From Nitrospirota bacterium (lineage in GTDB: Bacteria; Nitrospirota; Thermodesulfovibrionia; Thermodesulfovibrionales; Dissulfurispiraceae): a DNA stretch of 64,000 nt. Where the stretch lies: positions 2,903-66,902 of the forward strand of contig JADFXI010000002.1 of assembly GCA_015233655.1 (NCBI GenBank), written 5' to 3'. Below are positions 3,622 to 42,448 of the stretch, piece by piece. The notes below the pieces were generated by a model. It did no database searches, was not told the origin of the DNA, and was given only the letters and a program-made list of their open reading frames with translations. Each line of letters opens with the position of its first letter. Position 1 is the stretch's first letter. Made by a program: the position numbers and the translations under genes.

Positions 3622-4134
3622 ATGCAACTGTTTGTAATTGCGATTTCTGCGCTTATCGTCGGGCTGGCACTTTCGATGACGAGCTTAAATAACCCGGCCA
3701 ACTACGACACTGCTGCAGTGGCCGACAGCCTCGCGCCAGAGCATTCTCTTTACGACGGCGCTGCGAACATCACCGCTGCTGCAAATGTCTCAATGGAACG
3801 CAGCAGACTCACAAGCGTGGAACAATCGCTTGTAGACGTGTGCAGAGCCATATACTGGATGGGGAAAAACAACGGTTGTTCGCCCTTGGATGAGGGTTTT
3901 ACGTGGCAGTTCATGCTTAATCAGGGGACAACCGGCGCTTTAAATAGCGTGCTAAGCGTTCCATCGACGAGCACGTTTTCATGCGGGAGCCCCGGCCAGT
4001 ATGGGGCGTACTTGCTGCGAGGCGTGTATAGTGACCTTGGCGGGTACAAGTATAACCTGAACAATAGCACCGGCACAGGCGTTATAAGCGGGCAGGCCGA
4101 CCCGTGTGCTTATGCGGATATTGTGTATAGGTAA
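3622..4134 (+). CDS. hypothetical membrane-anchored / secreted protein (possible minor pilus component)
   Basis: 170 aa with an N-terminal hydrophobic helix (FVIAISALIVGLALSMTS) and several Cys. It sits directly after the pilin gene and abuts the ATPase gene. No G-1/E+5 motif. Confidence 0.4.
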   Translation: MQLFVIAISALIVGLALSMTSLNNPANYDTAAVADSLAPEHSLYDGAANITAAANVSMERSRLTSVEQSLVDVCRAIYWMGKNNGCSPLDEGFTWQFMLNQGTTGALNSVLSVPSTSTFSCGSPGQYGAYLLRGVYSDLGGYKYNLNNSTGTGVISGQADPCAYADIVYR

Positions 4135-16187: not shown

Positions 16188-17180
16188 ATGGCGGCAATAT
16201 TTGCGAAGACCGAGCAGGGCATTGAGGACATCCTATTAACCGGCGTTGCGCTTGGCGCGAGCGATATACATCTTACTGAGTTGAACCAGCCTGTATTTCG
16301 CGTTGACGGAGACTTGAGGAGAAGCGACCTTCATCCGGTGGACATTTCAGATATGAACAGGTTTCTGGATAATGTGATACCAGCCGGTTTCTCGGGCAAA
16401 GACGGAGATTTTTCATTTACTTTTTCTGAGAGGAGATGGAGGGGAAACTATTTTCATTCTAATGGCAAGAGGCTTTCGATTGCGCTTAGGCTGCTTCCCC
16501 TTCAAATACCTGACATAAGGGATTTAGGTCTGCCGGCAAGTTTCAACCGCATTGCAGAAATGAAGAACGGTATCGTGCTGGTGACCGGTCCTACCGGCAG
16601 CGGCAAGTCTACAACCATTGCAGCCATGATCAAGCGTATGATCGAGACAAAGAGCATGCATCTTATAACGATTGAAAACCCCGTAGAGTATCTATTTGAA
16701 AGCACCAACTATTCAGTGGTAAACCAGCGGGAGATAGGATGCGATACCGACGATATCACTCTTGCCCTCAAGTATGCCTTGAGGCAGGACCCTGATGTGA
16801 TACTGGTTGGAGAAATACGTGATACTGAAACCGCAAGACTTGCGGTCAATGCCGCAGAGACCGGTCACCTTGTTTTCGCCACACTTCATACGATAAATGT
16901 AGTAGAGACGGTCAACCGGCTCTACGGGTTGTTCCCTCCCCAGGAAAGGCATCTTGTTCAGCAGCAAATAGCTGCAACCCTTAACCTGACAGTAGCCCAA
17001 AGGCTAATAAAAAAACCGTCTGGAGGAAGAATGGCCCTTGTCGAGGCTTTATTTCCTAATGAATCAATAAGAGAGCTTATCCGGGAAGGCAGGAGCCATG
17101 AAATTCCGCAGCATATTAATGGGGCTGATTATATAAACACATTTGTCGGATACGCTGACGGGAGATGTCATGTCGCTTGA
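16188..17180 (+). CDS. PilT/VirB11-like ATPase (paralogue 3)
   Basis: ASDIHLTELNQPVFRVDGDL, VTGPTGSGKSTT, IENPVEY, LVGEIRDTET, VFATLHT. It overlaps the traC/virB4-like start. Confidence 0.85.
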   Translation: MAAIFAKTEQGIEDILLTGVALGASDIHLTELNQPVFRVDGDLRRSDLHPVDISDMNRFLDNVIPAGFSGKDGDFSFTFSERRWRGNYFHSNGKRLSIALRLLPLQIPDIRDLGLPASFNRIAEMKNGIVLVTGPTGSGKSTTIAAMIKRMIETKSMHLITIENPVEYLFESTNYSVVNQREIGCDTDDITLALKYALRQDPDVILVGEIRDTETARLAVNAAETGHLVFATLHTINVVETVNRLYGLFPPQERHLVQQQIAATLNLTVAQRLIKKPSGGRMALVEALFPNESIRELIREGRSHEIPQHINGADYINTFVGYADGRCHVA

Positions 17181-19794
17181 AAAGACGTTAGTGGAACTTG
17201 GCTTGGATGGAGTGAGATTTGATTCTGTTAGGGACGTCAACAGGTTATTCACAACGCTGCCGTCTTTTGGCAGTATGCTACCGTATAGGAGCTTCGACGA
17301 AGGGCATAAAGTGTTTATTCTGGGGGATTTCTCCAAAAAAGAGAGATATGTCGGCGCCATGTGGGAATACACTCCATTTGTACATGAGGCAAACAGCCTC
17401 GACGGACAAAAACTCGCAATAGCGAATCTGATGGAAATGGCCCTCCTACAAATACCTGAGGGTTATGCATTTCAATTCATTATTGTGTCGGACCGAAATG
17501 TCAGTTCGTTTCTTCCTCTCCCCTCCAATGCAGTTGGTGACCCTGAGGCAGACGCATCGGAAATGGGAGAGGCCACTGCCATTAACACTTTATATAACGA
17601 GCAGGTGATGTTTTTGCATACCAGTTCCAAGAGCGGGCTATGGGGCGGGAAAAGTGTTTTCCCGCGGACGATGAGGTTTTACATAACGGTCTTTCATGTG
17701 CCGCGAAAAATTACGCTGGGAGAAAGATCAGTAAGCGCCATTGAAAGAGTAGAGCTGGAATCAACTACTATGGACATCAGTAAGAAAATAAATGTCTTCA
17801 GCAGCAATATAACTGTATTTGAGTCCATGATGAAAAACAATGGCTTCGGTTTGCGCAGATGCGAAGCCGGAGACCTCATAGGCTATTTTCACCAACACTT
17901 GCACAAGAATATGTTTAAGGACGGACTGGGTGCACCAGAATACATACCCCAAATAGATTTAAGCCGGCAGCTATTCAGGACATTTTTATATACAGGCGAT
18001 ACTTTTGTATATTCAGATGGGCATTATTACAGGACCAGTGCAGCGACAAATGCACCGCAGTATACCGTGCCGGGTATCATGTATAAGCTTATGGAAGTGC
18101 CTGGAGACATTCAGATATGCCTGACCGGTTTTGTTGAAGTCCAGGACAAAGAAAAGAACGCACTAAAATGGAAAGGGAACTTTGCGTCTTATGGGCTGAT
18201 GAATCCTTTTGGCAGAGAGGACAATGACAATTCAGCCATAGCAGCGGATGTAGACACAATCGAAAAGGACATGCTTGCCGGCAAAAAAGTGTTCCATTTT
18301 TCTTTTTACGTTACTAATGCGGGCGAAACATGCGAGACTGCAAATACGTATGTGCAAAAAGTTAAGGCTAAAATTGCGGATATGGAAATACCTATGCTTG
18401 CGGACAATATTATCGCCCAAAGTCTTTTTAAGAATTCTCTTCCTTTTCATTACGCTGCTCTTGAAAATAGCAGTCATCTATATCGTACATTTAAACTTCC
18501 CTCACACTCTTTTGCTCAAATGGTCCCGGCGACCGGCGCCTGGCTCGGCACGCGAAACCCCGGACTGATCGGGCTATCGCGGACATGCGAACCGGTGTAT
18601 CTCGATTTTTTTGATGGGGCGGTGCCGCATTTTATTATATCCGGAGAAACCGGAACAGGCAAAAGCGCCCTGCTGAATATGCTGGCAATAAGATTTTTGA
18701 AAAGGGGCGACAGGTTTTTTATCATTGACATGATGGGCTCTTACAAGAAACTCTGCTCTCTGGTCGGCGGTGAGTATATATCGTTTAACCTAAATAACCC
18801 TGTATCTTATAATCCATTTGACTGCGCACTCGACAAGGAGCGTATCCTGCTGCTGTCCAACTTCCTTGCGTCGATCATGACGAGGAAGAATGAGGAATTG
18901 GCCCAGTCTGATATAGCGTTGATTGACAAGGCCATTGAATTCACATACGAAAAACTCGGGCACTACAACAGGACACCTGAATTAGAAGATTTCAACAATG
19001 TGCTGAAATCTCATTTTGGCGAAAAAGGGCAGTCTCTTTCAGAGCGACTGGCATTTTACGTCGGTAAAGGAAAATACGCGAACTTCTTCAGGAGGTCTTC
19101 ATTCAATGTGAATAATCATTTCATAGTATTTGATATTGGAGAGCTTAAAGAGTCTCCCGATCTAATGCGGGCAATGCTTTTCAACATCATGCTGGTTATA
19201 GGGGAGCAGGTTAGAAAATTGGTAGGGCGTAAATGGCTTCCAATTGATGAGGCGCATCGAATATTCATTGAATCCGTTGGGGCCGATTTTGTTGACAGTG
19301 CGTTCAGGACGTATCGGCATTACAATACCGCAGTGGGAGTAATGACTCAAAAGGTCTCGGACCTTCTGAAAGCCGGCAAAGTTGGAGAGGTCTGTCTTTC
19401 CCAGGCGAACGTCCAGATCTATTTCAGACAGCCGAGCCTGAGCGTGCTTGATGCTATGGGGTACCTGGGGCTCTCGGAACCTGATGCGTATACGACTGAA
19501 AATTTGAAAAGCATGATGGGGTTTTATAGCGAGGCATTAATTCATATAAAGAGACTGAGAGCAGGAGGCTCGGGTAAAGGCGTAATCAGGTTCATGTCCA
19601 CGCCGCTCAATTATGCCACGTTCACGACCGACCCGCCTGACAAAGAGGCATATGCAGTAATCAGGAAGCAAATACGGGAAAACATGCCTGCGGCAGAGGA
19701 AGCCGATGTCGAAAAGGAAACGACGAGAATCTTTGCCAAGACATACCCTCATGGCGTGTCAGCAGGCTTAATAAACGCAGCCGATATTTGGTAG
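17143..19794 (+). CDS. traC: TraC/VirB4-family T4SS ATPase
   Basis: 883 aa, F-TraC-like in size. Walker A ISGETGTGKSALLN and Walker B WLPIDEAHRIF. An alternative start is ATG 17170. Confidence 0.85.
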   Translation: MSDTLTGDVMSLEKTLVELGLDGVRFDSVRDVNRLFTTLPSFGSMLPYRSFDEGHKVFILGDFSKKERYVGAMWEYTPFVHEANSLDGQKLAIANLMEMALLQIPEGYAFQFIIVSDRNVSSFLPLPSNAVGDPEADASEMGEATAINTLYNEQVMFLHTSSKSGLWGGKSVFPRTMRFYITVFHVPRKITLGERSVSAIERVELESTTMDISKKINVFSSNITVFESMMKNNGFGLRRCEAGDLIGYFHQHLHKNMFKDGLGAPEYIPQIDLSRQLFRTFLYTGDTFVYSDGHYYRTSAATNAPQYTVPGIMYKLMEVPGDIQICLTGFVEVQDKEKNALKWKGNFASYGLMNPFGREDNDNSAIAADVDTIEKDMLAGKKVFHFSFYVTNAGETCETANTYVQKVKAKIADMEIPMLADNIIAQSLFKNSLPFHYAALENSSHLYRTFKLPSHSFAQMVPATGAWLGTRNPGLIGLSRTCEPVYLDFFDGAVPHFIISGETGTGKSALLNMLAIRFLKRGDRFFIIDMMGSYKKLCSLVGGEYISFNLNNPVSYNPFDCALDKERILLLSNFLASIMTRKNEELAQSDIALIDKAIEFTYEKLGHYNRTPELEDFNNVLKSHFGEKGQSLSERLAFYVGKGKYANFFRRSSFNVNNHFIVFDIGELKESPDLMRAMLFNIMLVIGEQVRKLVGRKWLPIDEAHRIFIESVGADFVDSAFRTYRHYNTAVGVMTQKVSDLLKAGKVGEVCLSQANVQIYFRQPSLSVLDAMGYLGLSEPDAYTTENLKSMMGFYSEALIHIKRLRAGGSGKGVIRFMSTPLNYATFTTDPPDKEAYAVIRKQIRENMPAAEEADVEKETTRIFAKTYPHGVSAGLINAADIW

Positions 19795-20253: not shown

Positions 20254-21765
20254 ATGCGTGACGAAAAGCAATTAAAACGAACAATACTTCAACAGCTTTC
20301 ACCGGCGCTTGTTTTCAGTGATCTATCGCCTTACAAAGATGCCGGGAAATTCGTGTGCATATGTCCCAGGTGCGGCGAATATACGCTTATAGCCGAGTCC
20401 GGTTCAGACCAGGGGAGATGCACCGGGCAAGCATGCACCTATAATACTAATTTTTGGGACTATATAAAAGATAGAGATAAGCTTGATGACAGAGAAACTT
20501 TGGAAAGACTGGCAGAAATAGCCGGGGTCCCTCTAAACGGGCAGAAGACACTGGCGGATGTGTTCATGCTGTTTTTTAAGTCGTCCCAGGCTTTTCTCAT
20601 GAGTGAAGCAGGCCCGGCTGTTTCAGCTAGATTCTTTCTGCATGAAAGGGGCTTTGCCGTTGATGCCATAGCTGAATTTGGGTTTTGCCTGCATCCCGGA
20701 GACTTGTCTTTGAAACAGCTTATGAAAAAACATTATGTTCCTGATATCCTGCTGATAAAGAGCGGTCTCGTGGACATGCCAGAAAGCGAAAACAAGTTGC
20801 TGCTGCCTTTAAAGGATAAAAGCGCCAGAATAGCGGGATTTGTCGTTATCCCCACAAGCAGGGACAAAGAGACCGAACATGATGTGTACCTGCACAACTT
20901 CGGAAGAGGAGGCCATATTTTCAGCGAACACCTGGCGCATAGAGAGATAAATAAGACCCGGATAGCCATAATCGCCGCCAGTGCCATGGAGGTATGTTAT
21001 CTCCACACTAAGGGTTATAAAAACGCATTGTCTATAGATGGAGATACCGTCCAGGACATACATGTTGACTATTTGCTGAAATTCGGTGCAAAGAATGTGC
21101 TGCTGTGCAGAAAAGACCGCGCAAACTGCATTAGAAATTCAGCGATAAATATATTTAAAAGGGGTATTGATGTTTTCAAGGTCCCTCTTCCTGACACCGT
21201 AGGCGCAGCCCTATATGTGGAATTAAGGGGAACGAATGACTTCAACGAAATAATACGGAAGGCCGAACCCGTGTGGAAATGGATAGCTTCAACACTTGTT
21301 GCTGATTTAAGAAAGGAATTTCATCACGTGCATGAAACTGTTTTGATAGATGAGGCAGTGTCCAAAGCTGAAGAGATGGTCAATTTATTGAGAGGATCAC
21401 TGTATCTTAATGACTTCCTCGGAGAATTATCCGATGAACTAAAGATTCCGGTGAGCAGCCTCGCCAAGATATTCAGGTCAGAGCCGCACGAAATAAAATT
21501 TGAGAGCATGAAAGACGATTTGAATGACCTGGTTCACAGTTTTTCGATCGAGGTTGCCGGCTATCTTGAAAATTATAGGATTGACATTGTTCAGGACAGG
21601 GCGTCACAGCTTCTGTACGGCTGCCCTTTGCCCAGAAACACGCAGGGAAGCACGTTTAAAGAATTTCTAAGGGCAATTATAGAGAGATCGAAGAGACTCG
21701 ATTACAGAGGGATAGAGAATCTGCTTAGAAGCAAGACGAATCCCGAAAAAAAATGGGGCCGGTAG
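20254..21765 (+). CDS. zinc-ribbon protein, possible Toprim/primase-like
   Basis: 503 aa with an N-terminal CICPRCGEYT...CTGQAC zinc ribbon. The central IAIIAASAMEVCYLH...SIDGDT is weakly Toprim-like. Its position upstream of the T4CP matches plasmid primases. Confidence 0.35.
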   Translation: MRDEKQLKRTILQQLSPALVFSDLSPYKDAGKFVCICPRCGEYTLIAESGSDQGRCTGQACTYNTNFWDYIKDRDKLDDRETLERLAEIAGVPLNGQKTLADVFMLFFKSSQAFLMSEAGPAVSARFFLHERGFAVDAIAEFGFCLHPGDLSLKQLMKKHYVPDILLIKSGLVDMPESENKLLLPLKDKSARIAGFVVIPTSRDKETEHDVYLHNFGRGGHIFSEHLAHREINKTRIAIIAASAMEVCYLHTKGYKNALSIDGDTVQDIHVDYLLKFGAKNVLLCRKDRANCIRNSAINIFKRGIDVFKVPLPDTVGAALYVELRGTNDFNEIIRKAEPVWKWIASTLVADLRKEFHHVHETVLIDEAVSKAEEMVNLLRGSLYLNDFLGELSDELKIPVSSLAKIFRSEPHEIKFESMKDDLNDLVHSFSIEVAGYLENYRIDIVQDRASQLLYGCPLPRNTQGSTFKEFLRAIIERSKRLDYRGIENLLRSKTNPEKKWGR

Positions 21766-23768
21766 TGGCACTGTCGGATATTGAGCGTGTGATAAACAAA
21801 GGATTCCTTTCAGGCCTGGCTGAATCAATTAAGAGAACGGTCAGCTTGCATGTAAGTCCAAGTCAGGTCCTGGTGCTTATTTTTTTGGTCCTTCTCGTGA
21901 TTGTTTTCATTGTCTTGTTTTTTGTGACAATTTATTCGCGCGGAAGAGTTCGCATAAAAGACAATCCGGCCACTTCAGGCCGCTTTGCCAGTCACCGGGA
22001 AATATTGTCCAGACTCACTATCCCGGGCAAAGCGCGCCTTTATGCCATATTCGGAGCGGGCGGTAGTGTGATTTTTTATGTGTTTGGCATGGTGCCCTAT
22101 TACCTTTTGCATCACCGGATCACGGTATCTCCGGCCATTGCTGTTATGTCTTTTGCAACATCTTTAGGACTCACGCACGTTCTTATTAAAGAATCCCGTA
22201 TTATCGAGAGAAAAACTGGGGATGATAATTTTTTTCAGATTGGCGCTTACAGGGGCAGGCGAATAGGGATAAACAAGAAGAGGAGGCAAGAAGGGATATT
22301 AATTCCAGGGCCTCCAGGTTCAGGAAAAACATCGAGTTTTATGATTACCAATATCATTAATGATTCTCTGAGCGACTGCTCCGTTTTCTGCGTCGACGTC
22401 AAGCCTGACGAGGACATTGTGGATATAGTGGGCAATTCATGGTGGGCGAGGGGAAGAAAGGTTATAAATTTTGATCCCTACAAATGGAAAATGCACTTCA
22501 ACCCTCTAATGATGATCGAAAGTGATTTTTCGAGTCAGAAGACGCATGACGCAGTCAAAGAGATTATCAATGCGCTGTTTGGGAGCTATTTTGCGATGGT
22601 CGGAGAAGTGAAACCTGATACGGACCATTTCATAGGCAGGGAATACCGTTTAATTTGGGCCGTTATAATGGCGGTTCTCAAAATGCCGGCGGAATACAGA
22701 AATCTTAATACAGTGCTCGATGCCGTCAAGCTCCCTCCGGATGAACTGACCAGGTTTATTGCAAGCACTGGAGACAGGAATGTGATTGACGAGTTCAGAT
22801 TTTTTGCCGATACAACTTCGCAAGAGAGAGTCAATGCAATGCAAGGCCTGTATCGAAAGCTTCAGTTTATGGATGGTCCGACCCTGCGGCAGGCACTTAT
22901 ACGGAATGATTTTGATATAGAAATATTCTTTAACGAGCCTTGTCTTTTTGTTGTAAAAGCGGAGATGCACAGGGACGATATGAAGGTCATGGCGAGCATG
23001 ATCGCACGTCTTCTAATGCTGCGTGACTACGAAAAAGCGGCTGAGGCCAATAGGAAGGGGGTAAAGCCCCGCCCTGCATGGTTTTATCTTGACGAATTTG
23101 CTCGCCTGAATTTGCCGAAAGTCGATGAATTCGCAGCGACCGGAAGGTCTTCAGAAGCTGGCCTGACCATCTACGTTCAGGACAAGTCGGACATCGAAGG
23201 TATCATGAAAAAAATGAAATCCGGCAGCGCCCAGTCTTTTATATCATCACTGCGGACAATTATCGTGCTGCCCGGATGCTCCTACGAAATGTGCCAGGAA
23301 ATATCGCTGTGGCTAGGGGAAACATCATTTAATTCTCCCATGAAGAGCAGGGGAGTTTTCGACTTTATTTCTTTCAGATATTATGAAAAAGCAGAGAAGG
23401 CCCCGCTGATAACCGCAGATAATATCCATTATATGGATGAAAACATGTGCCTGGTGCTGACAAAAGGAATCAGGCCTTTTTTTGCCAAACAAATCCCCTA
23501 CTATAAGGACGGGAAATACAAAAACCTGCTGAATAAGCCATTCACATTTTACATGCCGGAGAGCACTAAGGATATTAAAAAAGGTGAGATAGCAGATTTA
23601 TTGAAAGAACGGGCTGCCGATGTGCAGGGATACATGAAGAAGATCGAGAAGGCAGAAAGCAGGACGATAACCGAAGCCGCCCGTGATGAAAGAGCAACGG
23701 CCCAGTCCGAAAGGGCCGCCCAAATAGGTGCTTTGCAGGAAACCGAATTCCCGATGGACAGTCTATGA
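21753..23768 (+). CDS. type IV coupling protein (TraD/VirD4/TraG family)
   Basis: N-terminal TM helices. Walker A LIPGPPGSGKTSS and Walker B FYLDEFARL. 671 aa. Confidence 0.8.
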   Translation: MGPVVALSDIERVINKGFLSGLAESIKRTVSLHVSPSQVLVLIFLVLLVIVFIVLFFVTIYSRGRVRIKDNPATSGRFASHREILSRLTIPGKARLYAIFGAGGSVIFYVFGMVPYYLLHHRITVSPAIAVMSFATSLGLTHVLIKESRIIERKTGDDNFFQIGAYRGRRIGINKKRRQEGILIPGPPGSGKTSSFMITNIINDSLSDCSVFCVDVKPDEDIVDIVGNSWWARGRKVINFDPYKWKMHFNPLMMIESDFSSQKTHDAVKEIINALFGSYFAMVGEVKPDTDHFIGREYRLIWAVIMAVLKMPAEYRNLNTVLDAVKLPPDELTRFIASTGDRNVIDEFRFFADTTSQERVNAMQGLYRKLQFMDGPTLRQALIRNDFDIEIFFNEPCLFVVKAEMHRDDMKVMASMIARLLMLRDYEKAAEANRKGVKPRPAWFYLDEFARLNLPKVDEFAATGRSSEAGLTIYVQDKSDIEGIMKKMKSGSAQSFISSLRTIIVLPGCSYEMCQEISLWLGETSFNSPMKSRGVFDFISFRYYEKAEKAPLITADNIHYMDENMCLVLTKGIRPFFAKQIPYYKDGKYKNLLNKPFTFYMPESTKDIKKGEIADLLKERAADVQGYMKKIEKAESRTITEAARDERATAQSERAAQIGALQETEFPMDSL

Positions 23769-26370: not shown

Positions 26371-26832
26371 TTACTTCCACATCCTTGGGTCAAAACTGAA
26401 ATTCTCCGGCTGGCCGATTGTTATTTTGCGGAAGTCGGGGTGGACGGGATTAAGTATAAGGTTGTACTCCGCGGGAATGATAACGGAGGGGACGCGAAGG
26501 ATCGAAGATATACCAGCCCGTACCCAATCATCCCCTACGGTCTTGGTTGATTCAGGGTGTTTTACCGCCCTCCAGTCAAGAGGCAGAGAAGATGGGAAAA
26601 GGGTGAGGATATGAACCTTAGAGGGTATGTCCAGAGGATAAGCGTAAAATGCCTCACCATTTTCCACCCGGGACAGTCCCACAAACATTTCCAGGGCTGC
26701 CAGTGACAAGTGCTCTGCTGCATACACTACAGATGTCCCTCTTGAATTCCATCGGCCTCCAATAATTCTCGGTCCCTCGCCGGCGAACGCTTCAGGCGCA
26801 AAAACTTTCTTGATCAACCGCCACGCCCTCAT
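26371..26832 (-). CDS. RES-domain toxin
   Basis: GGRWNSRGTSVVYAAEHLSLAALE plus downstream E and S positions of the RES domain. It overlaps the Xre-like partner. Confidence 0.8.
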   Translation of the reverse strand: MRAWRLIKKVFAPEAFAGEGPRIIGGRWNSRGTSVVYAAEHLSLAALEMFVGLSRVENGEAFYAYPLDIPSKVHILTLFPSSLPLDWRAVKHPESTKTVGDDWVRAGISSILRVPSVIIPAEYNLILNPVHPDFRKITIGQPENFSFDPRMWK

Positions 26833-27248
26833 ACAGGCATGCCATATTTAATTCTGCCAAGAATATCATCCACCTCTTTGGCCCCTGCATCGGTCTTGAG
26901 CATTTCAAGCGGAGTTTTTCGTTCCAAAGAGAAATGGGGAGTACTTAGCCACTGTCGAGCATTCTCCTCGCTGCCCATCACCTCCACAGCGAAGGAGAAT
27001 ATCCGTGCAAACCTATACAATCTGTCGGAAGCACTTACCGGGAGTCTCCCCTGTTTCCCCTTTTTACGGTGAAATGATCTCTCGCTGATTCCCAAGGCTT
27101 TGGCAAACTCCTTGTCAGTGAGGCGTAACAATTCTTTGAAGAAATTGCCGGCCTCTACGGGAATGCCTTTCAGAATTATCTCATTGTAATCAGATATTAC
27201 ATTCCCTATCTTTTTTTTGCCGCCCAGGGCATTAGTAACATTGTACAT
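26829..27248 (-). CDS. Xre/DUF2384 (MbcA/ParS-like) antitoxin
   Basis: HTH region (FAKALGISERSFHR) followed by ARQWLSTPHFSLERKTPLEML, typical of DUF2384. It lies upstream of and overlaps the RES gene. Confidence 0.75.
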   Translation of the reverse strand: MYNVTNALGGKKKIGNVISDYNEIILKGIPVEAGNFFKELLRLTDKEFAKALGISERSFHRKKGKQGRLPVSASDRLYRFARIFSFAVEVMGSEENARQWLSTPHFSLERKTPLEMLKTDAGAKEVDDILGRIKYGMPV

Positions 27249-27360: not shown

Positions 27361-30300
27361 ATGGCTTCCAATGATGACAGACCATGCAGGTCAAATGGCG
27401 TTGTTTTTGATTCTATTAGAATCGGTTTGTTAACCTCTAGAGCAACAGGTTTGCTGTCCTACGGCGAGGTTTCTTCCCCGGAAACATTCAATGTTAGGAC
27501 CGGCGAACCGGTCACAAGTGGGCTGTTCTGCGAAAGAATTTTCGGCCCTGTGAGAAAAGGCAAATGTTACTGCGGCGCAGATAACGGCGTAGTGGGGGAC
27601 GGTGCTGTATGCAGGGATTGCAGTGCCGCGCTTTCAGAGCCCGGTGACAGGAGGCGTAGACTCGGCCACATAACTCTTGCAGCACCTGTTGTGCATATAT
27701 GGTATTACAAAGGACAGAAAAGCATAATTGCCAGGCTACTTGGACTGCCGCCAGGACAGGTCCAGAAAATTGTGCGTTATGAACTTTTTGTTGTAATAGA
27801 GCCGGGCGCAAGCGGGCTTAAACATAATCAGATCATATCAATTGAGGAGTCCGGAAAGTACAGGTCTGTGTGTCCCGATTTCCATGCAGGGACGGGTGCG
27901 GACGCAATTAAGGCGCTGCTGAAGAACATCAACCTGAATGACCTTTCAAATAAAATTAAAGAGGATAATTACTTATCCGTAAGAAAAAGAAACAAACTCT
28001 CTTTAGTCGAGAAACTCCTAAAGTCCGGCAACAGTCCGGAATCGATGATTATAGAGGTATTGCCTGTATTGCCGCCTGACTTGCGTCCCGTGATTTTTCT
28101 CGATAATGGGACTATAGTTGCCTCCGATCTTAATATGCTTTACAGCAGGGTTATTTACAAGAACCAGAGCCTGCGGAGGCTGATCCACCTGGGCGCGCCG
28201 GAGATTATACTGCATAATGCAAAAAGGCTTCTTCAGGCTGCCGTGGACAGCCTGCTGGATAATGGCAGAAATGTTACGGCTACCAGCCGGTCTCAAAAAA
28301 AACCGCTTAAATCGCTTTCAGATATGATACGCACCAAGAAGGGAAGATTCAGGGTCAATCTTCTTGCCAAACGGGTCGACTATTCGGGAAGGGCGCAAAT
28401 TACGATAGGGCCTGAACTTAAAATACACCAGGTAGGGATTCCGAAGGCAATGGCACTGGAACTTTTCAAGCCCTTTATATACAGATGGCTTATCAAGAAG
28501 GGTTTTGCACCGGGGCTGAAACAGGCAAGACAAATCTTCGAGGCCGAGAAGCCGGAAGTCTGGGATGCCCTGGACGATTCGATTGCCGAGCATCCTGTGA
28601 TAATTAACAGGGCGCCGACCCTACATAAATTGAGCATGCAGGCCTTTGATCCTGTTTTGGTTGAAGGTGCTGCTCTAAGGCTTCATCCCCTCGTATGTTC
28701 GGGATTTAATGCAGACTTTGACGGAGACACCATGGCAGTGCATGTTCCCCTGTCTTTTGAGGCACAGATAGAGGCCAGAGTACTTTTAATGTCTGTTAAT
28801 AATTTATTTCATCCGGCAAACAGCAGACCCGCATTATTGCCGTCACAGGATATTGTCTTGGGCATTTATTATCTGACGAAAGAGAAGAAAGAAGGCAAAG
28901 GCGGAGGAATGTTCTTCTCTGATGTGGATGAAGTTTCTATTGCCTACGCAAACAACATTCTAGAGGAAAATTCAGGTATATTTGTCAGAATAGGCGGCGC
29001 TCTGGTAAGCACGACAGCGGGCAGAGTGCTGCTTTATTTAATAACTCCACAAGGCATCCCGTTTGCAGCTATTAACAGGCCGCTGAAAAAAAAAGACATT
29101 GCTGATTTGATAGAGCTGTGTTGGGAGAAGTGTGGCGCAAGAGAAACTGCAAGATTTCTGGATGACATAAAAGAGATGGGGTTTAAGCATGCAACGTTAT
29201 CAGGAATTTCCCTTTGTCTTGATGACATGCGGGTGCCTGCCGGCAAGAAAACCATTGTACGTGAGGCGGAAGTTGAAGCAGCCGAAGTGAAAACTCATTA
29301 TGAAGCCGGTCTAATGTCTGATAATGAGAGGCACAGAAAGGTAATTGAAATTTGGAGTAAAGCTGTAGACAGGGTGACGTCGGAAACTATGCTCGCACTG
29401 AAAGAAAGCCAACCTGAGGAAACAAATGTGTTATTTATGATGGCGGATTCGGGAGCGAGAGGGGACATTAATCAAATACGCCAGATAAATGGAATGAGGG
29501 GGCTGATGGCCAAGCCCACGGCGGAGATTGTAGAAGTCCCGATAACGTCAAATTTCGTGGAAGGCTTGAGCACATTCGAGTTCTTTCTTTCGACTCATGG
29601 GGCCAGAAAAGGGCGGGTTGACGGCCCACTTAAGACGCCCCTTGCAGGTTATTTCACAAGGAGACTTGTGAGCGCTGCACGAGATGTTGTTGTCACCACT
29701 CATGACTGCGGCACTATCGAGGGTATTTATCTCGAAACGCTTGTAAGCAACGGAGTTGTGGTGCTATCTCTGGAGGAAAGAATAACGGGCAGGACACTGG
29801 CCGATAATGTATTGGGCCCGAATGGCCGAACTGTTCTGGCATCGTATGGCACCATACTGGACAAAGAGTCCGCGGCAAAAATCTCGGCTGAAGGCATAAA
29901 AAGGGTCAAGGTGCGTTCAGTGCTTACCTGCAAGGCGCAGTCAGGAGTTTGCGCTGTCTGCTATGGATTCAATCTCGGCAGCCGCATGCCTGCGGAAATA
30001 GGAGATGCCGTGGGCGTTATCGCAGCACAGTCAATAGGAGAGCCCGGCACTCAACTCACCTTGAGGACGTTCCATACGGGCGGGGCAGCCGTCGCACCGG
30101 GAGTTAACGCAGTATCTTCAGCCAAAGAAGCAATCAAAACAATGGATATAACCGGAGGGCTTCCAGGAGTCATTGATCTTTTTGAAGCGAGAAATCCTGA
30201 AGATGCAGCAGGGGGAAATTGCCGAGAGCTATTGAAAACATCGGGAGCTGACGCAGTATGGAAATATATAATTGACGAGGCACAGAAGATATACCGTCAA

Positions 30301-30678
30301 CAGGGTGTGGTAATACATGACAAGCATTTTGAAATAATTACGAAGCAGATGACGGGATTCGTTAAAATCACGGAACAAGGGGGATCGGCATTATTGCTGG
30401 GTGAAATAATCCGGAAGAGTGAATTTGCCTCCGCGTCTGACAAAGCCAGGAGCAGGGGTCTAAAGCCTCCTGTTGCCTCCCCTGTGCTGTTGGGGATAAG
30501 TCAGATACCTCAGTATTACAATAGTTTTCTTGCATCGGCTTCGTTCCAGAGGACAACCACTGTATTAGCGGATGCTGCATTTGAAGGTAAAGCAGACCCG
30601 CTGCAAAGTAATGCCGCACGGATAATCACAGGGAAACTAGTGCGGGCCGGCACAGGTCTTTTTGTTAAAGAACACTGA
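27361..30678 (+). CDS. RNA polymerase beta-prime (RpoC) paralogue, compact and orphan
   Basis: Zn finger CYCG...CRDC; LPVLPPDLRP; RVDYSGR; INRAPTLH; catalytic NADFDGDTMAVHVP; SGARG; bridge helix STHGARKG; second Zn site HDCG / CKAQSGVCAVCYG; trigger loop AAQSIGEPGTQLTLRTFHTGG; C-terminal GKLVRAGTG. Only 1105 aa, with no rpoB adjacent. Confidence 0.85.
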   Translation: MASNDDRPCRSNGVVFDSIRIGLLTSRATGLLSYGEVSSPETFNVRTGEPVTSGLFCERIFGPVRKGKCYCGADNGVVGDGAVCRDCSAALSEPGDRRRRLGHITLAAPVVHIWYYKGQKSIIARLLGLPPGQVQKIVRYELFVVIEPGASGLKHNQIISIEESGKYRSVCPDFHAGTGADAIKALLKNINLNDLSNKIKEDNYLSVRKRNKLSLVEKLLKSGNSPESMIIEVLPVLPPDLRPVIFLDNGTIVASDLNMLYSRVIYKNQSLRRLIHLGAPEIILHNAKRLLQAAVDSLLDNGRNVTATSRSQKKPLKSLSDMIRTKKGRFRVNLLAKRVDYSGRAQITIGPELKIHQVGIPKAMALELFKPFIYRWLIKKGFAPGLKQARQIFEAEKPEVWDALDDSIAEHPVIINRAPTLHKLSMQAFDPVLVEGAALRLHPLVCSGFNADFDGDTMAVHVPLSFEAQIEARVLLMSVNNLFHPANSRPALLPSQDIVLGIYYLTKEKKEGKGGGMFFSDVDEVSIAYANNILEENSGIFVRIGGALVSTTAGRVLLYLITPQGIPFAAINRPLKKKDIADLIELCWEKCGARETARFLDDIKEMGFKHATLSGISLCLDDMRVPAGKKTIVREAEVEAAEVKTHYEAGLMSDNERHRKVIEIWSKAVDRVTSETMLALKESQPEETNVLFMMADSGARGDINQIRQINGMRGLMAKPTAEIVEVPITSNFVEGLSTFEFFLSTHGARKGRVDGPLKTPLAGYFTRRLVSAARDVVVTTHDCGTIEGIYLETLVSNGVVVLSLEERITGRTLADNVLGPNGRTVLASYGTILDKESAAKISAEGIKRVKVRSVLTCKAQSGVCAVCYGFNLGSRMPAEIGDAVGVIAAQSIGEPGTQLTLRTFHTGGAAVAPGVNAVSSAKEAIKTMDITGGLPGVIDLFEARNPEDAAGGNCRELLKTSGADAVWKYIIDEAQKIYRQQGVVIHDKHFEIITKQMTGFVKITEQGGSALLLGEIIRKSEFASASDKARSRGLKPPVASPVLLGISQIPQYYNSFLASASFQRTTTVLADAAFEGKADPLQSNAARIITGKLVRAGTGLFVKEH

Positions 30679-30713: not shown

Positions 30714-30755
30714 AAAATATAGAGTAAATCGTTGCTCGAAAAGGAGGTATTTTGT

Positions 30756-31343
30756 ATGTCCGCAATAATTTGGGAAACAGACTTTAGTGAGGCGACAAAA
30801 AAGGCAAAACGTGAAGGAAAACCTATCTATCATGATTTTTGGTTTGAGGGTTGAATTGGATGCGCAGCAATGAATACGGGTCCGTATTCGGATGAGAAGA
30901 TACAGATGTATTTGCAGGAAAACTTCATTGCAGTCAAAACCCAGTGTTTCTTTGACAAGCCTGTTGAGCTTATGGAGCAGTTCAACATCAAATGGACACC
31001 AACACTTATTATCCACGATAAGACGGGAAGGGAGCACCATCGGATGGTGGGATATGTCCCTATCAATGACCTGTTTGCTCATCTTGAATTTGGCAGGGCC
31101 AAGGTCTTTTTCGACACAGAGCACTTCAGTAACGCTGTCGAGATTTTCAATAAAATAATAGAGATTTACCCTCAAGCACCTGTCACTCCAGAAGCGATAT
31201 TTTATCTGGGAGTAGCTGAGTACAAGAGGTATCATGATCCGGCCGGCTTGCGAAGGGCTTATGATACATTGAAGGCCAAATATTCCGGAAGTGAATGGTC
31301 ACGTCGCGCAGAGCCGTATTCGGCCATACCGGCTGGTGTGTAA
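30756..31343 (+). CDS. thioredoxin-fold (Thioredoxin_7/DUF255-like) protein with in-frame TGA, candidate selenoprotein (UxxC), plus TPR-like C-terminus
   Basis: ATG 30756 follows AAGGAGG (30741-30747). The same frame as the listed ORF at 30870 is interrupted only by TGA 30852-30854, giving KPIYHDFWFEG-U-IGC-AAMN. The stop falls exactly where the CxxC of this fold sits. Confidence 0.65.
30872..30889 (+). promoter_or_regulatory. SECIS-like hairpin downstream of the in-frame TGA
   Basis: GAATACG-GGTC-CGTATTC: a 7 bp perfect stem and a 4 nt G/U-containing loop starting 17 nt after the TGA. Confidence 0.5.
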
Positions 31344-31438
31344 AGATACAGAGTAAAAGGATTTATTTTATAAGGGGCATATCACTGGGTACGCCCCTTA
31401 TAAATTTAACACAAAACTCACCGCACTGCGGAAGTCAA

Positions 31439-31762
31439 TTACATGAGCATGTCCGAAAGTTCGTCGAGGTTTTTTCTTAATACCTCTTTATCGTGCTCCG
31501 ACAATGGGGTGCTTTCCACCGGCAGCTCTTCAATAATTGCCTGGCGCGACGGTGCCGTGTAATAAGCCCGCGCACTCGCTTCTTTTGCTGATTTTGAGTC
31601 TGCCTGGGCGGACCGTTCCCTGCTGAAATAGGCGTAAAGGATGTCCTTTATGACCCTGGATTTATGTCCCTTCCTTTTCCTCGCAGTGAGACCGGCAATA
31701 ATTAGTGCATCCTCCGGATTGTCAGGATATAGTCTGATGAAGCATACCTCAATCTTGTCCAC
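31439..31762 (-). CDS. hypothetical, ParR-like adaptor by position
   Basis: 107 aa basic protein immediately downstream of the ParM-like gene. Assignment is from synteny only. Confidence 0.35.
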   Translation of the reverse strand: MDKIEVCFIRLYPDNPEDALIIAGLTARKRKGHKSRVIKDILYAYFSRERSAQADSKSAKEASARAYYTAPSRQAIIEELPVESTPLSEHDKEVLRKNLDELSDMLM

Positions 31763-31777
31763 AGATGACTGTCCCTG

Positions 31778-32761
31778 TCAGCGCATCATTCTGCGTTCCA
31801 AGATAACGCTTCTTTTGTAGTAGCCACGCGCATTGGCCATCTGGGGTTCACTTATCAGGAGGTGGGTGTGTGCCATGGCGGATATGTGCTGCTGTAGGAG
31901 TGAGCCCCCGCCACCCGTTAGAAGTACGACGTCAATTTCACCCACGATGCTCCATTTTGATTTAATGACCCCCGCTATTTTCTGCCCCACTTGCGATAGG
32001 ACCCGCTCTACAAGATTGCTCACATCTTTATTCTGGCCTGAGACTTTGAAATGTTTTGTCTTAACGCTCTGTTCGGCTTCATCTGCAGTAACCATATCCC
32101 TGTCGAAGGCGTTTTTTAATTCGCGCGCTACGATATCATAAAGCTCATAGGCTCCTGTGGGAATACTGCCGGATGCTTTTTCGACATAATGTTTTGCGTC
32201 TTCAATAAGTATGTAATCAGTAGTGTGGTAGCCGATATCTACAATTCCAAGCCTTTTGAACAATGGAGCGCTTCCGGCAATGTCGCCGTCGTTATCGTAA
32301 AATATGTCAAAGAATGAGCCGAAAGGCTGAGGGATTACGCTGATGTCTGCTATGTTGATACCTATGCCGTCGCAAGTTTTCCTGATTACTTCTTCGGCTT
32401 TCGGTTTATCTCTCATGTAGTCGACAGGAAGGCCGGTAACTATTGTTACTGCCTCTGGGTCGGTTGTCGCGTGTCTGCCGTTCAATGCCCTCGTTATGGC
32501 TGACGTGAGCAGGGCGCCGTACATTTTGCTTTCGACCCATCCCCTTGTTCTTAAGGTATAAGTAACATCGCTATGCCTGGCCTTGTCTCCGACAAAAAAC
32601 TGCTCTCCTTGATATTCGACAGTTTCTCCACAAACATCTGCACCTTCCTTTAGAGTAAACGATAATTCTCTGGCAGGTCCAACACGGGATGGAAAAAAAA
32701 GCGAAGAATGTTTTGTAACAACCTTTGTATAACCATATCCTACATCAATTCCTATTTTCAT
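31778..32761 (-). CDS. parM: ParM/StbA-like actin-type segregation ATPase
   Basis: Phosphate-1 KIGIDVGYGYTK, phosphate-2 LGIVDIGYHTTDY, adenosine motif VVLLTGGGGSLL. ATG 32761 is preferred to the longer ORF ending at 32833. Confidence 0.75.
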   Translation of the reverse strand: MKIGIDVGYGYTKVVTKHSSLFFPSRVGPARELSFTLKEGADVCGETVEYQGEQFFVGDKARHSDVTYTLRTRGWVESKMYGALLTSAITRALNGRHATTDPEAVTIVTGLPVDYMRDKPKAEEVIRKTCDGIGINIADISVIPQPFGSFFDIFYDNDGDIAGSAPLFKRLGIVDIGYHTTDYILIEDAKHYVEKASGSIPTGAYELYDIVARELKNAFDRDMVTADEAEQSVKTKHFKVSGQNKDVSNLVERVLSQVGQKIAGVIKSKWSIVGEIDVVLLTGGGGSLLQQHISAMAHTHLLISEPQMANARGYYKRSVILERRMMR

Positions 32762-33073
32762 ATGAAACTCCTCTACCGGCTGAAGGCCGCTGGTTTTTTT
32801 CAGTATTCTTTGAAATATTACTTTCGCTATCAATATGCTTTCAGGCAGGCGTTTTGAATGGTCAATGTTAGCTTATGGCTTTCTTAATGATAGCAATCCA
32901 GAGAGCAGGCAGGCCACAGTGCTTCAGCTCATTCTCGCAAGGCACCAGCCTTGCTCCGAGGCTATGTCAGCCTGTTCAGCCATCCCTGGCTTCTTTAGGC
33001 TGACAAAGGCTACTTCAGTACCATGTCCAGCCTGCTCTCGGAATTTTAAAAAAATAGAAATTTTTTTAAGCCT

Positions 33074-35542: not shown

Positions 35543-36652
35543 ATGAAGAAAATCGAATTGATGTTATTGACCGGACAGGATTCAGATGAATCACGGAAAC
35601 AGCAAGCGATGGATGTTGCCAGGAGATTCAGCGAGTTCGTTGGCGCGGCTCGCGAGAGCGTCCACATTGCGATCTACGATTTTCGTCTTGACGAGGGCGA
35701 AGCCGGGATCGTAATAGATGCGCTGAGCAATAAGGCAGCAGATGGAGTGGATGTTAGGGTCGCATATTTCGAGCAAAACAGGAAAAGCAAATCTGCACCC
35801 GGAGGAGACCCGGCTCCTGGAACAGACAGAAATTTCCTGCAACGTCTTCATAAAGATGTAAAGGTGAAGGCGGTAAAGGGAATAAGTGATCTTCCGGCTG
35901 GAGTACAAGCCTTGCCGATCGAAGGCGGAGGCCACTTGATGCACAGCAAGTACATAGTCGCAGACGCGTGTTGTGTATGGATGGGATCGGCCAATTTTAC
36001 CACTGATGCGTGGAGCATTCAGGATAACAATATAGTCATCCTGGAATCAGCCCAAATTGCAAAGTGTTATGAGACCGACTTTGCTGAATTGTGGGAGTCG
36101 GGTCGTATTGCGGGCACAGGCAAGGACGATCACGGCGATGCAGAAATCGACGGCAGCAACGTCGAAGTCGATTTTTCGCCAGGTGATGGCGCAGCGATGG
36201 ATCAAGGTATTGCCGATCTGATTACGTCAGCGAAAAGTGAGATCGCACTTGCCTCGATGGTTATTTCTTCCGGCAACGTTTTGGATGCCCTGGCAGCTGC
36301 AATAAGACGCGGCGTAAAAATATGGGGCATCTATGACGGGCCGCAAATGAACCAGGTTGTACGGGCGTTTGGCAGGGGCAAAAATGGCGACAGCAAAACC
36401 AAGATCGGGCTGTGGGATGTCATAAAGAAAGAATTGGTTGCCAAATATTCCACGCCATATGCAGAAGATGGGCCACACGATTTCATGCATAACAAGCTGG
36501 CCGTGGTTGATGGAAGCATCGTGAAGACCGGGAGCTTCAACTTCTCGGCTAACGCTACTAAAAACGCGGAGAACATCATCACTATTTATGACCAGGAAAT
36601 CGCAGCCCAATACGTTCAGTATGTTCATGGGCTCGTTTCGAAGTACGCGTAG
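35543..36652 (+). CDS. phospholipase D / nuclease superfamily protein with two HKD motifs
   Basis: HLMHSKYIVADACCVWMGSANFT and FMHNKLAVVDGSIVKTGSFNFS. No TM segment. Confidence 0.8.
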   Translation: MKKIELMLLTGQDSDESRKQQAMDVARRFSEFVGAARESVHIAIYDFRLDEGEAGIVIDALSNKAADGVDVRVAYFEQNRKSKSAPGGDPAPGTDRNFLQRLHKDVKVKAVKGISDLPAGVQALPIEGGGHLMHSKYIVADACCVWMGSANFTTDAWSIQDNNIVILESAQIAKCYETDFAELWESGRIAGTGKDDHGDAEIDGSNVEVDFSPGDGAAMDQGIADLITSAKSEIALASMVISSGNVLDALAAAIRRGVKIWGIYDGPQMNQVVRAFGRGKNGDSKTKIGLWDVIKKELVAKYSTPYAEDGPHDFMHNKLAVVDGSIVKTGSFNFSANATKNAENIITIYDQEIAAQYVQYVHGLVSKYA

Positions 36653-39704: not shown

Positions 39705-41339
39705 ATGGCAGCAAAGCAACTTTTGTTTGATGAAGCGGCAAGACAGGCGATTTTGCGGGGCGTGACTATTCTTACCGATGCAGTAAAGGCTACCCTCGGC
39801 CCCAGGGGAAGAAATGTAATCATAGACAGGAAGTTTGGTGCGCCGAATATCACTAAGGACGGCGTTACTGTCGCAAAGGAAATCGAGCTTAAAGAGCCTT
39901 ATGAAAATATGGGCGCACAACTCCTGAGAGAGGTTGCCTCCAAGACCTCAGACGTAGCTGGTGACGGTACAACAACAGCGACCGTGCTTGCCTATGCTAT
40001 TTACAAAGAGGGCATGAGGCATGTTACAGCAGGCGCTAATGCAATTGACCTCAAGAGGGGTATTGACAAGGCCGTTGAAGTGGTAGTGGAAGAGTTGAAA
40101 TCAATGAGCAGGCCTGTTGCAGAGAAGAAAGAGATTGCCCAGGTCGGCACGATTTCAGCGAATAACGATCCTTCAATCGGCGAGTTGATTGCAGAGGCAA
40201 TGGACAAGGTCGGCAAAGACGGCGTTATTACTGTTGAAGAAGCCAAAAGCATGGCAACTACCCTGGAAGTAGTAGAGGGAATGCAGTTTGACAGGGGATA
40301 CATTTCTCCATATTTTATAACTGACGCTGACAGGATGGAAAGCGTGCTGGATGACGTTTTTATTCTTATCCACGATAAGAAGATATCGAGCATGAAAGAT
40401 CTCCTTCCTGTACTTGAACAGATCGCAAAAATGGGCAGGCCGTTGGTCATAATTTCTGAGGAAGTCGAGGGCGAGGCGCTTGCAACTCTCGTTGTCAACA
40501 AGCTGCGCGGGACCCTTCAGGTTGCTGCAGTTAAGGCCCCTGGTTTTGGAGACAGGAGAAAAGCGATGCTTGAAGACATTGCCATTCTCACGGGCGGCAC
40601 TGTTATCTCTGAAGACCTCGGACTCAAGCTCGAGAATGTCAAAATAAATGATTTGGGCAGGGCCCGCAAGGTCACCATCGATAAGGAAAACACCACGATT
40701 GTTGAAGGCGCCGGTGATAATGCCCAGATTCAGGGCAGGGTAAAACAGATCAAGGCACAGGTCGAAGAGACGACTTCAGATTACGACAGGGAGAAGCTTC
40801 AGGAAAGGCTTGCCAAACTGGTCGGCGGCGTGGCGGTCATTAATGTCGGGGCCGCAACAGAATCTGAAATGAAGGAAAAGAAGGCGAGAGTTGAAGATGC
40901 CCTTCATGCTACCAGGGCTGCTGTTGAAGAAGGCATTGTGCCTGGCGGCGGCGTCGCACTTCTGAGGACGATTAAGGCGCTGGACAAGCTGAAACTGGAC
41001 CACGACCAGCAGCTCGGAGTGGCTATTGTCAGGAAATCTCTTGAGGAGCCGATTAAGCAGATAATTCAGAATGCAGGCATCGAGAGCGCAATAATCGTTG
41101 AAAAGGTGAGGGCTTCGAAAGAACCGAATCAGGGATACGATGCGTATAAAGAGGAATATACCGATATGCTCAAGGCTGGAATCATCGATCCTACAAAGGT
41201 GACCAGGTCCGCGCTCCAGAACGCATCGTCGGTAGCAGGCTTGATGCTTACTACAGAAGTAATGATCACCGATATTCCGGAAGAGGACAAGAAGATGCCT
41301 CCTATGCCGGGCGGCGGCGGTATGGAAGGGATGTACTAA
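39705..41339 (+). CDS. groEL: chaperonin GroEL
   Basis: [12 protein letters not shown]...GPRGRNV...[10 protein letters not shown]...GGGV, with a C-terminal GGGGMEGMY. Confidence 0.97.
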
Positions 41340-41431: not shown

Positions 41432-42448
41432 TTGATTAATATGAGTGTTAGACATAATGCAAAATTGTTGTGTGTTGCGTTTCTGGTCCTTCCACTAATA
41501 TACGTAGCATCAGAGCTTTTCGTGCCTTCGGGCATAGGCAATACGAACATGGAAGTTGAAATACCGGAAGGCGCGACATACAAACAAGCCATTAACATAC
41601 TGTACAAGAACAACCTTATAAGAGATAAGAACATCTTTCTTGTGTTAGGTAAGCTGACCGGCCTCGACCGGAGGATACGGTATGGGTTCTATTCATTTTG
41701 GGGCAGAATGAGCCCCTATCAGGTATTCAAGCGACTGAAAGAGGGGAAAATTATAGAATATGAGGTGACTATTGTCGAGGGAGACAGTCTCCTCGAAATA
41801 GGCGACAAGCTTACCTCAAACAAGCTCATGACCAGAGAGGTTTTTAACCGGCTGGTAAAAGACAGCGACTTTCTCAAGAGCCTGAAGGTTGATGCTCCGA
41901 GTCTGGAGGGCTATATTTTCCCTCAAACATACAGAATCCCCAAAGGGATAAGTCCTAAAACGGTGTTTAAAGGCATGGTGGACCTGCTCAGGAAGTCATA
42001 TACTGATGACATGCGGCAGCGGGCCAGGAAATTAGGCTGGGATGAGAACAAAATGCTCATACTTGCATCTATAATAGAAAAAGAGGCAGTGACAGACGAA
42101 GAGAGGCCCGTTATTTCTGCCGTTTATCAAAACAGGATTAATAAGGGCATGCCGCTTCAGGCAGACCCTACCGCTATCTACGGAGTGAAAAGCAGCAAAC
42201 TGAAAATAACGAAGGATGATCTCAAGAACAAGACCGATTACAATACATACGTGATAAAAGGACTGCCTCCAGGACCAATAGCGTCCCCGGGGATAAAATC
42301 GATTGCCGCTGCGTTATATCCGGCAAATGTGCCCTATCTCTATTTTGTTTCGCAAAAAAACGGCACTCACTATTTTTCAAAATCACTGAGCGAGCATAGT
42401 GCCGCAATCAGGCGTATACGGGGCGGTAATAGCAATGATTGGAAATAA
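41432..42448 (+). CDS. mltG: endolytic murein transglycosylase MltG (YceG-like)
   Basis: N-terminal TM helix. Blocks LEGYIFPQTY, ILASIIEKEA, NRINKGMPLQADPT, YNTY...GLPPGPI.SPG. Confidence 0.85.
   Translation: MINMSVRHNAKLLCVAFLVLPLIYVASELFVPSGIGNTNMEVEIPEGATYKQAINILYKNNLIRDKNIFLVLGKLTGLDRRIRYGFYSFWGRMSPYQVFKRLKEGKIIEYEVTIVEGDSLLEIGDKLTSNKLMTREVFNRLVKDSDFLKSLKVDAPSLEGYIFPQTYRIPKGISPKTVFKGMVDLLRKSYTDDMRQRARKLGWDENKMLILASIIEKEAVTDEERPVISAVYQNRINKGMPLQADPTAIYGVKSSKLKITKDDLKNKTDYNTYVIKGLPPGPIASPGIKSIAAALYPANVPYLYFVSQKNGTHYFSKSLSEHSAAIRRIRGGNSNDWK

Follow-up and report, generated by a model that had tools for sequence, protein, structure and literature searches.

A Nitrospirota gene of the thiol:disulfide interchange protein family with an in-frame UGA that probably encodes selenocysteine

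The ‘thiol:disulfide interchange protein’ family of selenoproteins was reportedly first predicted by Kryukov and Gladyshev in 2004. Members have been described in Geobacter metallireducens, G. uraniireducens and Syntrophus aciditrophicus, three organisms among which no Nitrospirota is given (Zhang et al., 2006; PMC1794560). The published sequences, deposited in supplementary file 4 of that paper, read ...LLDFFNPGUIGCKQMDAV(T/A)YP... around the selenocysteine (Sec, U) and SEW.KRA.PY.LL further on, and a 2026 review lists the family under PF13098, with the motif UxxC and accession WP_011366075.1 (PMC13188914, Table 1). For the RNA element that accompanies a bacterial Sec codon, the bSECIS model of Zhang and Gladyshev (2005), as summarised in PMC13188914 (Fig. 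2), gives a stem of 4–16 bp, a loop of 3–9 nt with G in the first two loop positions and usually then G or U, a distance of 16–37 nt from the UGA, and a minimum free energy (MFE) of at most −7.5 kcal/mol.

The locus described here lies in a 64-kb window, meaning the whole stretch of DNA that was analysed, from a Nitrospirota bacterium of the Dissulfurispiraceae (GCA_015233655.1, contig JADFXI010000002.1, positions 2,903–66,902 of the forward strand). On the plus strand, a coding sequence of 195 codons runs from ATG 30756 to the stop codon TAA at 31341–31343 (30756..31343), as delimited by translation, tblastn and BLASTP, and its codon 33 is an in-frame TGA (30852..30854). By BLASTP, the encoded protein aligns with the G. 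metallireducens member over residues 1–191 (38% identity, E 8e-48) and with the G. uraniireducens member over residues 4–191 (36% identity, E 2e-48), and U33 falls on the U of these two proteins and of the S. aciditrophicus one. Since published members align end to end with U on U, the family is one already known as a predicted selenoprotein; judged by its sequence, the window gene is a Nitrospirota member of that family and not the founder of a new one.

The resemblance extends to general design. Published members have 186–190 aa as compared with 195 aa here, share the thioredoxin fold with a helical tail, match PF13098 and carry U-I-G-C; the C-terminal PEA ... SEW.(R/K)RA.PY signature is likewise present in both. 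In the family alignments (A1, A3), no variation is seen at E146, W181 and P187 and almost none at S179, R184 and A185; the window protein and the published sequences have all six residues. The published proteins, represented among the related loci by L043–L080 with their DFFNPGUIGC motif, are joined to the window gene by a continuum of TGA-containing homologues. The two ends of this continuum differ in detail: the clade of the window protein reads DFWF-x-G-U-x-G-C ... MNTGPYS with a GGUC hairpin loop, whereas published members read DFFNPGU ... MDAVTYP with loops such as GUUA and GUCA. On this sequence evidence, the window protein belongs to a divergent clade, composed mainly of Nitrospirota together with some Desulfobacterota.

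A scan of one genome per species returned 296 loci with a relative of the gene, and the best 80, at 38–77% identity, were analysed. They come from Nitrospirota, Desulfobacterota, NC10 and Deferrimicrobiaceae, and include the cultured Geobacter sp. OR-1, Geobacter sp. AOG1 and Geomobilimonas luticola. In every one of these best 80 of 296 loci (80/80), the codon aligned with 30852–30854 is TGA, and the tblastn alignment covers residues 1 to about 192. A TGA, and not TGC or TGT, shared by 80 independently assembled loci rules out a sequencing error, which the sequence-only reading had named as a way in which its proposal might fail.

That reading had also proposed that Cys-containing homologues should place Cys opposite the TGA, and they do. 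Among 99 homologues retrieved from a collection of 5.8 billion proteins, 98 are short forms of 116–162 aa that begin at, or just ahead of, the Met that follows the motif. The sole full-length match is P0018 (193 aa, 57% identity), which carries Cys at the TGA position (FWFKDCIGCAQM; CIGC), with FWFKD-C-IGC against FWFEG-U-IGC in the window protein. Further Cys forms, including P0101 and P0104, are found, and hundreds of about 186 aa exist; in the DNA of eight Cys-form homologues, TGC or TGT was confirmed at the aligned codon.

Downstream of the TGA lies a stem-loop, GAATACG-GGTC-CGTATTC (30872–30889), which begins 17 nt after the TGA and places its apical loop 24 nt after it. Seven Watson–Crick pairs (30872–30878 with 30883–30889) enclose the loop GGUC (30879–30882), and a flanking U.G pair extends the stem to 8 bp (30871..30890, plus strand), with a folding energy of −7.1 kcal/mol as against −6.2 kcal/mol for the core alone. 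Like the bacterial SECIS consensus, this element sits inside the coding sequence right after the UGA and has an upper stem of 7–8 bp and a 4-nt loop led by G-G-U; unlike the consensus, it has no evident bulged U, and its lower stem is not conserved in the family. The SECIS of E. coli fdhF has a GGUC apical loop too. On the plus strand of the window, 22 perfect Watson–Crick 7-bp hairpins with a G-led loop of 3–9 nt occur, and the chance that one should fall 16–37 nt after a given codon is about 0.008. The surrounding 70-nt region, on the other hand, has an unexceptional folding energy (z = −0.74) and takes as its MFE structure a longer competing pairing instead of the 30872–30889 hairpin, which counts against the Sec reading. 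For these two reasons, the case for the hairpin rests on comparative data and not on thermodynamics. A search of the 64-kb window against Rfam at the gathering threshold gave no match.

The comparative data are extensive. When the window is added to the best 80 of the 296 loci, all 81 sequences hold a stem-loop in the same alignment columns, beginning 17 nt after the UGA. In the ungapped alignment of these sequences, 97.8% of the stem cells are paired, as compared with 16–63% when the 3′ arm is slid out of register. At three of the seven pairs both partners are substituted, and at columns 22/37 an A-U pair is replaced by G-C in 34 of 81 sequences; the observed covariation score was reached by none of 500 shuffles. 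This compensation is visible at the protein level as well, where N → D (AAU → GAU) accompanies S → P (UCx → CCx). The apical loops vary (GGUC, GUUA, GUCA and similar), yet all 81 sequences agree with the bSECIS model on every count, with G in the first two loop positions, loops of 4–6 nt, a spacing of 23–24 nt, and a regional MFE of −7.5 kcal/mol or lower (−8.5 kcal/mol in the window). The hairpin had been described correctly, to the nucleotide, in the sequence-only reading, whose suggestion that it is compatible with a SECIS element is thus strengthened by conservation, covariation and fit to the published model.

The eight Cys-form homologues with confirmed DNA serve as a control. Although their peptide is nearly identical to that of the Sec forms (MDAVTFP versus MDAVTYP), they keep only 3–6 of the seven stem pairs, and the two that keep six are those nearest to the Sec forms. 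When the hairpin is forced, its energy in Cys forms ranges from −5.0 to +4.1 kcal/mol, against a Sec-form median of −6.2 kcal/mol. The decay of the stem in Cys forms implies that it is maintained only where a UGA must be recoded.

The observation of an in-frame UGA followed by a SECIS-type hairpin is therefore confirmed and its interpretation supported, and we put the probability that UGA 30852 encodes Sec at roughly 0.92. Two further results weigh on this estimate. No tRNA-Sec was detected by ARAGORN in the 64-kb window or in 60 related loci, and tblastn with the G. metallireducens SelA, SelB and SelD found no selA, selB or selD in the window, which counts against the Sec reading. We found no report in the literature of selenium incorporation, by 75Se labelling or mass spectrometry, for any family member.

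It is conceivable, and in our judgement very improbable, that the UGA is read through as something other than Sec, be it by reassignment to Trp or Gly, by near-cognate suppression, or through a Sec machinery that, short of selenium, inserts Cys. Insertion of Cys at Sec-UGA codons under selenium limitation is known in other systems, which speaks for the last of these variants. Reassignment can be rejected: with 10 of the window's 39 long ORFs ending in TGA, the codon is a frequent stop and the genetic code is standard. Moreover, a scan of both strands of the 64 kb for an in-frame TGA that has an open frame on either side and a G-led hairpin returned the selenoprotein locus as its sole match, and the downstream element covaries and fits a SelB-type bSECIS model. 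Members of the family come, in addition, from lineages whose use of Sec is documented (PMC1794560, Table 3).

Similarly improbable is the view that the TGA is a true stop. The product would then be the 157-aa protein that begins at ATG 30870 (the gene's own GenBank record, MBF0557266.1), and the 32 codons 5′ of the TGA would represent a leader peptide or what is left of a decayed reading frame. Almost all database entries follow this call, the mechanical ORF list of the window gives 30870..31343 (157 aa), and the Met encoded by ATG 30870 (M39) is invariant in all homologues. This Met, however, belongs to the stretch that encodes the hairpin, and no Shine–Dalgarno sequence precedes ATG 30870. 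In contrast, ATG 30756, in the same frame, follows an AAGGAGG (30741..30747, plus strand) by 8 nt, and the orthologues checked have GAGGAGG, AGGGAGG or AAAGGAG ahead of the aligned ATG. ATG 30756 and its AAGGAGG, proposed earlier, are read directly in the sequence, and translation of 30756–31343 reproduces the proposed read-through peptide exactly, with the TGA as the only stop ahead of the terminal TAA. Among 22 sequences, the 32 codons 5′ of the TGA hold 4093 third-position differences as against 1739 and 1734 at the other two positions, and of all codon differences 41% leave the amino acid unchanged; this excess at third positions indicates that the segment is translated and under purifying selection. 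The N-terminal extension is hence kept across the family, as the sequence-only reading required. A decaying remnant would, furthermore, be expected to vary or to gain other stops rather than to retain TGA in 80/80 of the best 80 of 296 loci. Cys forms are translated straight through, and with only 157 aa the protein would be missing its active-site motif, along with strand 1 and the beginning of helix 1 of the thioredoxin fold.

That the hairpin is chance or a by-product of the peptide M-N-T-G-P-Y-S, and the TGA an assembly error for TGC or TGT, is refuted by the comparative data and its likelihood is close to nil: some nucleotide conservation is expected of any hairpin within a conserved coding sequence, and the local folding z-score is unremarkable, but the same TGA stands in 80 independent assemblies (the best 80 of 296), the amino-acid changes (N → D with S → P) compensate each other pairwise in the RNA, and the MDAVTFP Cys forms use stem-breaking codons that leave 3–5 of the seven pairs.

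Turning to the protein, the first domain (30756..31085, plus strand; residues 1 to about 110) has a thioredoxin fold of the DsbD-gamma type, as indicated by PF13098, by profile matches to the PDB and by Foldseek. With U read as C, the best Pfam match is Thioredoxin_2 (PF13098; 1.7e-13, residues 17–109), which extends across the TGA. The sequence-only reading had pointed to Thioredoxin_7/DUF255-type proteins; of these, DUF255 is borderline (27.2 bits against a threshold of 27) and Thioredoxin_7 stays under its threshold. The redox motif U-I-G-C (30852..30863, plus strand) corresponds to the CxxC of thioredoxin-fold proteins. A profile built from 75 family members matches DsbD gamma in the PDB at E ~1e-12, with (U/C)IGC on CVAC. 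In a W-T-P-T loop (residues 80–83; 30993..31004, plus strand), W80, T81, P82 and T83 are invariant or nearly so in the family alignments (A1, A3); we take this to be the cis-proline loop that faces the active site, from general knowledge of the thioredoxin fold.

The remainder of the protein (31086..31340, plus strand; residues ~111–195) is an all-helical, TPR-like domain that carries the terminal signature SEW.(R/K)RA.PY. Pfam TPR_6 and TPR_2 match it weakly, and the C-terminal 75 residues of the family profile match the TPR domains of CpoB (6g5s, 8e-11) and YbgF (2xev, 4e-08). An AF2 model of the Cys homologue P0018 (pLDDT 97.3, pTM 0.91) places a strand at residues 24–29 and the first Cys (residue 33) right before a helix at 34–41, followed by five to six helices, with the C-terminal helices spanning 103–190. 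Foldseek with this model finds DsbD gamma as the best match (1uc7, 2fwg, 1vrs; TM 0.77–0.81, rmsd 1.9 Å). These models and profiles give the protein a thioredoxin fold like that of DsbD gamma, with a TPR tail resembling those of CpoB and YbgF fused to it. By inspection of the sequence, its 195 residues include no signal peptide, and its N-terminus has no hydrophobic segment; for the latter reason, it is presumably cytoplasmic.

The gamma domain of DsbD, the C-terminal thioredoxin-like part of this electron transporter (1uc7, 2fwe-h, 1vrs), is thus both the closest solved fold and the closest sequence relative in the PDB, a likeness that explains the historical name of the family. Unlike DsbD, which has exported alpha and gamma domains and a membrane domain between them, the window protein stands alone at 195 aa, has no membrane domain, is presumably cytoplasmic and not periplasmic, and has a TPR tail and Sec. 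Membership of DsbD itself was rejected, as the match to NCBIfam PRK00293 reaches 35.1 bits where the cut-off is 330 and is confined to profile positions 465–570. Several other selenoproteins, namely TsoB (NF045694), Trx7/PDZ (NF041199) and VPGUxxT (NF041382/NF041383), resemble the window protein in having a thioredoxin fold with Sec in or near the CxxC position and give weak local matches to its thioredoxin domain, but their architectures and motifs are different. They too were rejected, with scores of 38.9 against 805 bits for TsoB, 18.6 against 300 for Trx7/PDZ and 16.3 against 275 for VPGUxxT. NCBIfam release 20 holds no model for the family, the unrelated TsoB being its best match.

CnoX/YbbN (3qou, 3qdn) offers a different kind of comparison. 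Its structures are the sole solved ones that match both domains, thioredoxin followed by TPR, over 194–207 aligned columns, and it shares with the window protein a cytoplasmic, soluble, two-domain design that combines redox activity and protein binding. The superposition, however, is poor (rmsd 11–12 Å, TM 0.30–0.43 by Foldseek), and CnoX/YbbN is absent from the PDB profile matches at E ≤ 0.01; membership was rejected on these grounds. The likeness is an analogy of architecture, and homology is unsupported by sequence. E. coli CnoX itself has no CxxC motif (SQHC stands in its place), and its TPR region is longer.

These features suggest how the gene may work. Translation would begin at ATG 30756, and the ribosome would pass UGA 30852 without termination. 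If the canonical bacterial mechanism applies, the hairpin at 30871–30890, with its G-led tetraloop, would recruit SelB together with GTP and Sec-tRNA(Sec), and Sec would be inserted. It would occupy the N-terminal, nucleophilic active-site position of U-I-G-C, where cycling between a selenol/thiol and a selenenylsulfide state would allow redox exchange with partner proteins that carry disulfides or sulfenic acids. The docking surface by which these partners are chosen would most likely be the TPR-like helical domain fused to it. The most likely product, then, is a thiol/selenol-disulfide oxidoreductase based on Sec, in which the TPR tail would select the partners, with both chemistry and partners deduced from motif and architecture.

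A bolder hypothesis, which we consider unlikely, is that the protein would be a Sec-dependent cytoplasmic counterpart of the CnoX-type ‘chaperedoxin’, in which the TPR domain would capture specific clients and the selenol resolve their oxidised cysteines, and that in the Nitrospirota clade it might also have a functional tie to the stand-alone RNA polymerase beta-prime-like gene that is always its direct upstream neighbour there. Architecture and a synteny restricted to that clade are the basis of this proposal.

The way in which the family appears in databases deserves attention. Almost every Sec-form member is shortened at the UGA, where gene callers cut the gene. This holds for cultured strains, as in the RefSeq entries WP_223905972.1 and WP_214174094.1 (‘tetratricopeptide repeat protein’, 150 aa) and WP_041971156.1 (155 aa). 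The names given to short forms are ‘tetratricopeptide repeat protein’ and ‘thioredoxin family protein’, and some MAG entries are called ‘BamD’. With a family-specific HMM and a rule that admits Sec as an exception, hundreds of records would be put right, and selenoproteomes of Nitrospirota and Desulfobacterota would be counted more accurately. Through the present locus, a family known since 2004 from Geobacter and Syntrophus gains a Nitrospirota clade, a result that is useful, of moderate curation value and of little surprise. The paired Sec and Cys forms, in which the hairpin is kept in the one and decayed in the other, constitute a natural data set for the gain and loss of SECIS elements inside coding sequences.

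As for transcription, a scan for sigma-70 promoters upstream of the selenoprotein gene found none. At its other end, 24 nt 3′ of the stop codon, lies a stem-loop (31367..31404, plus strand; −20.9 kcal/mol, z = −5.37) that none of 200 shuffles matched in folding. It is followed by a short U run only, and is a probable transcription terminator of a monocistronic unit. The stem-loop stands between the selenoprotein gene and a convergent 107-aa ORF, so that it may possibly terminate transcription on both strands.

The neighbours within about 7 kb were clustered across the 81 loci (the window and the best 80 of 296), and no universally conserved partner, and with it no pointer to a substrate, was found. 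Several apparent clusters of neighbours were rejected as antisense-frame artefacts, and GGDEF proteins are scattered among the neighbours. In the window, the order is a beta-prime-like RNA polymerase gene, the selenoprotein gene, and then genes for a ParM-like actin, an HD hydrolase and a PLD protein, an order common to the related Nitrospirota MAGs L001, L003 and L004. The beta-prime-like gene (27361–30678, plus strand), directly upstream, encodes a protein of 1105 aa that stands alone and comprises Rpb1 (beta-prime) domains 1–5 of RNA polymerase; no rpoB-like gene adjoins it, and a RES-Xre pair lies on its other side. It occupies the same position in L001, L003 and L004 at 67–74% amino-acid identity, while the match in L002 covers the C-terminal end only. 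The RES-Xre pair (26371–27248, minus strand) is typical of its kind, with a RES toxin (26371–26832) and an Xre/MbcA/ParS-type antitoxin (26829–27248) that overlap by 4 nt. Convergent with the selenoprotein gene (31439–32833, minus strand) are the ParM/ALP-like actin (31778–32833; ALP_N and MreB-like_C) and the 107-aa ORF (31439–31762), both conserved in L001–L004. That actins of the plasmid-partition type occur on contigs of over 1 Mb is a hint of an integrated element.

Further upstream, a conjugation/type IV secretion block (4134–25481, plus strand) contains T2SSE/VirB11-like ATPases (4134–5831 and 16188–17180), a TraC/VirB4-like gene (17143–19794) and a TraG/VirD4 coupling protein (21753–23768), all on the plus strand, in addition to several ORFs without a Pfam match. 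Part of this block recurs in L001, namely the end of the coupling-protein gene and two of the unknown ORFs. Housekeeping genes in the window include those for GroEL (39705–41339), MltG (41432–42448) and GlnE (50728–53556), and the block beside them suggests an integrated conjugative element.

Other lineages have other neighbours. In Geobacter sp. AOG1 and Geomobilimonas luticola, the orthologue is followed at a distance of about 5 kb by a selA gene (L067, 15108–16457; L073, 15002–16378; 64–67% identity to SelA of G. metallireducens), which speaks for the Sec reading; in Geobacteraceae, the Sec machinery may thus be loosely linked to the family's selenoprotein gene. In the Geomonas-type Cys forms (L083–L088), the gene stands between rsmB and a PLD/cardiolipin-synthase-like gene (~472 aa), and the window has a PLD-family gene (35543–36652) about 4 kb downstream of the selenoprotein gene; this proximity may be a coincidence or a weak functional association. 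In another clade, composed of Deferrimicrobiaceae and other ‘Deltaproteobacteria’ MAGs (L009, L014, L015, L017–L020, L027, L030, L036, L041 and L044), the gene lies directly downstream of, and on the same strand as, a gene for a 563-aa methylmalonyl-CoA mutase, with carboxyltransferase, GlcD-like and GlcF-like genes further upstream.
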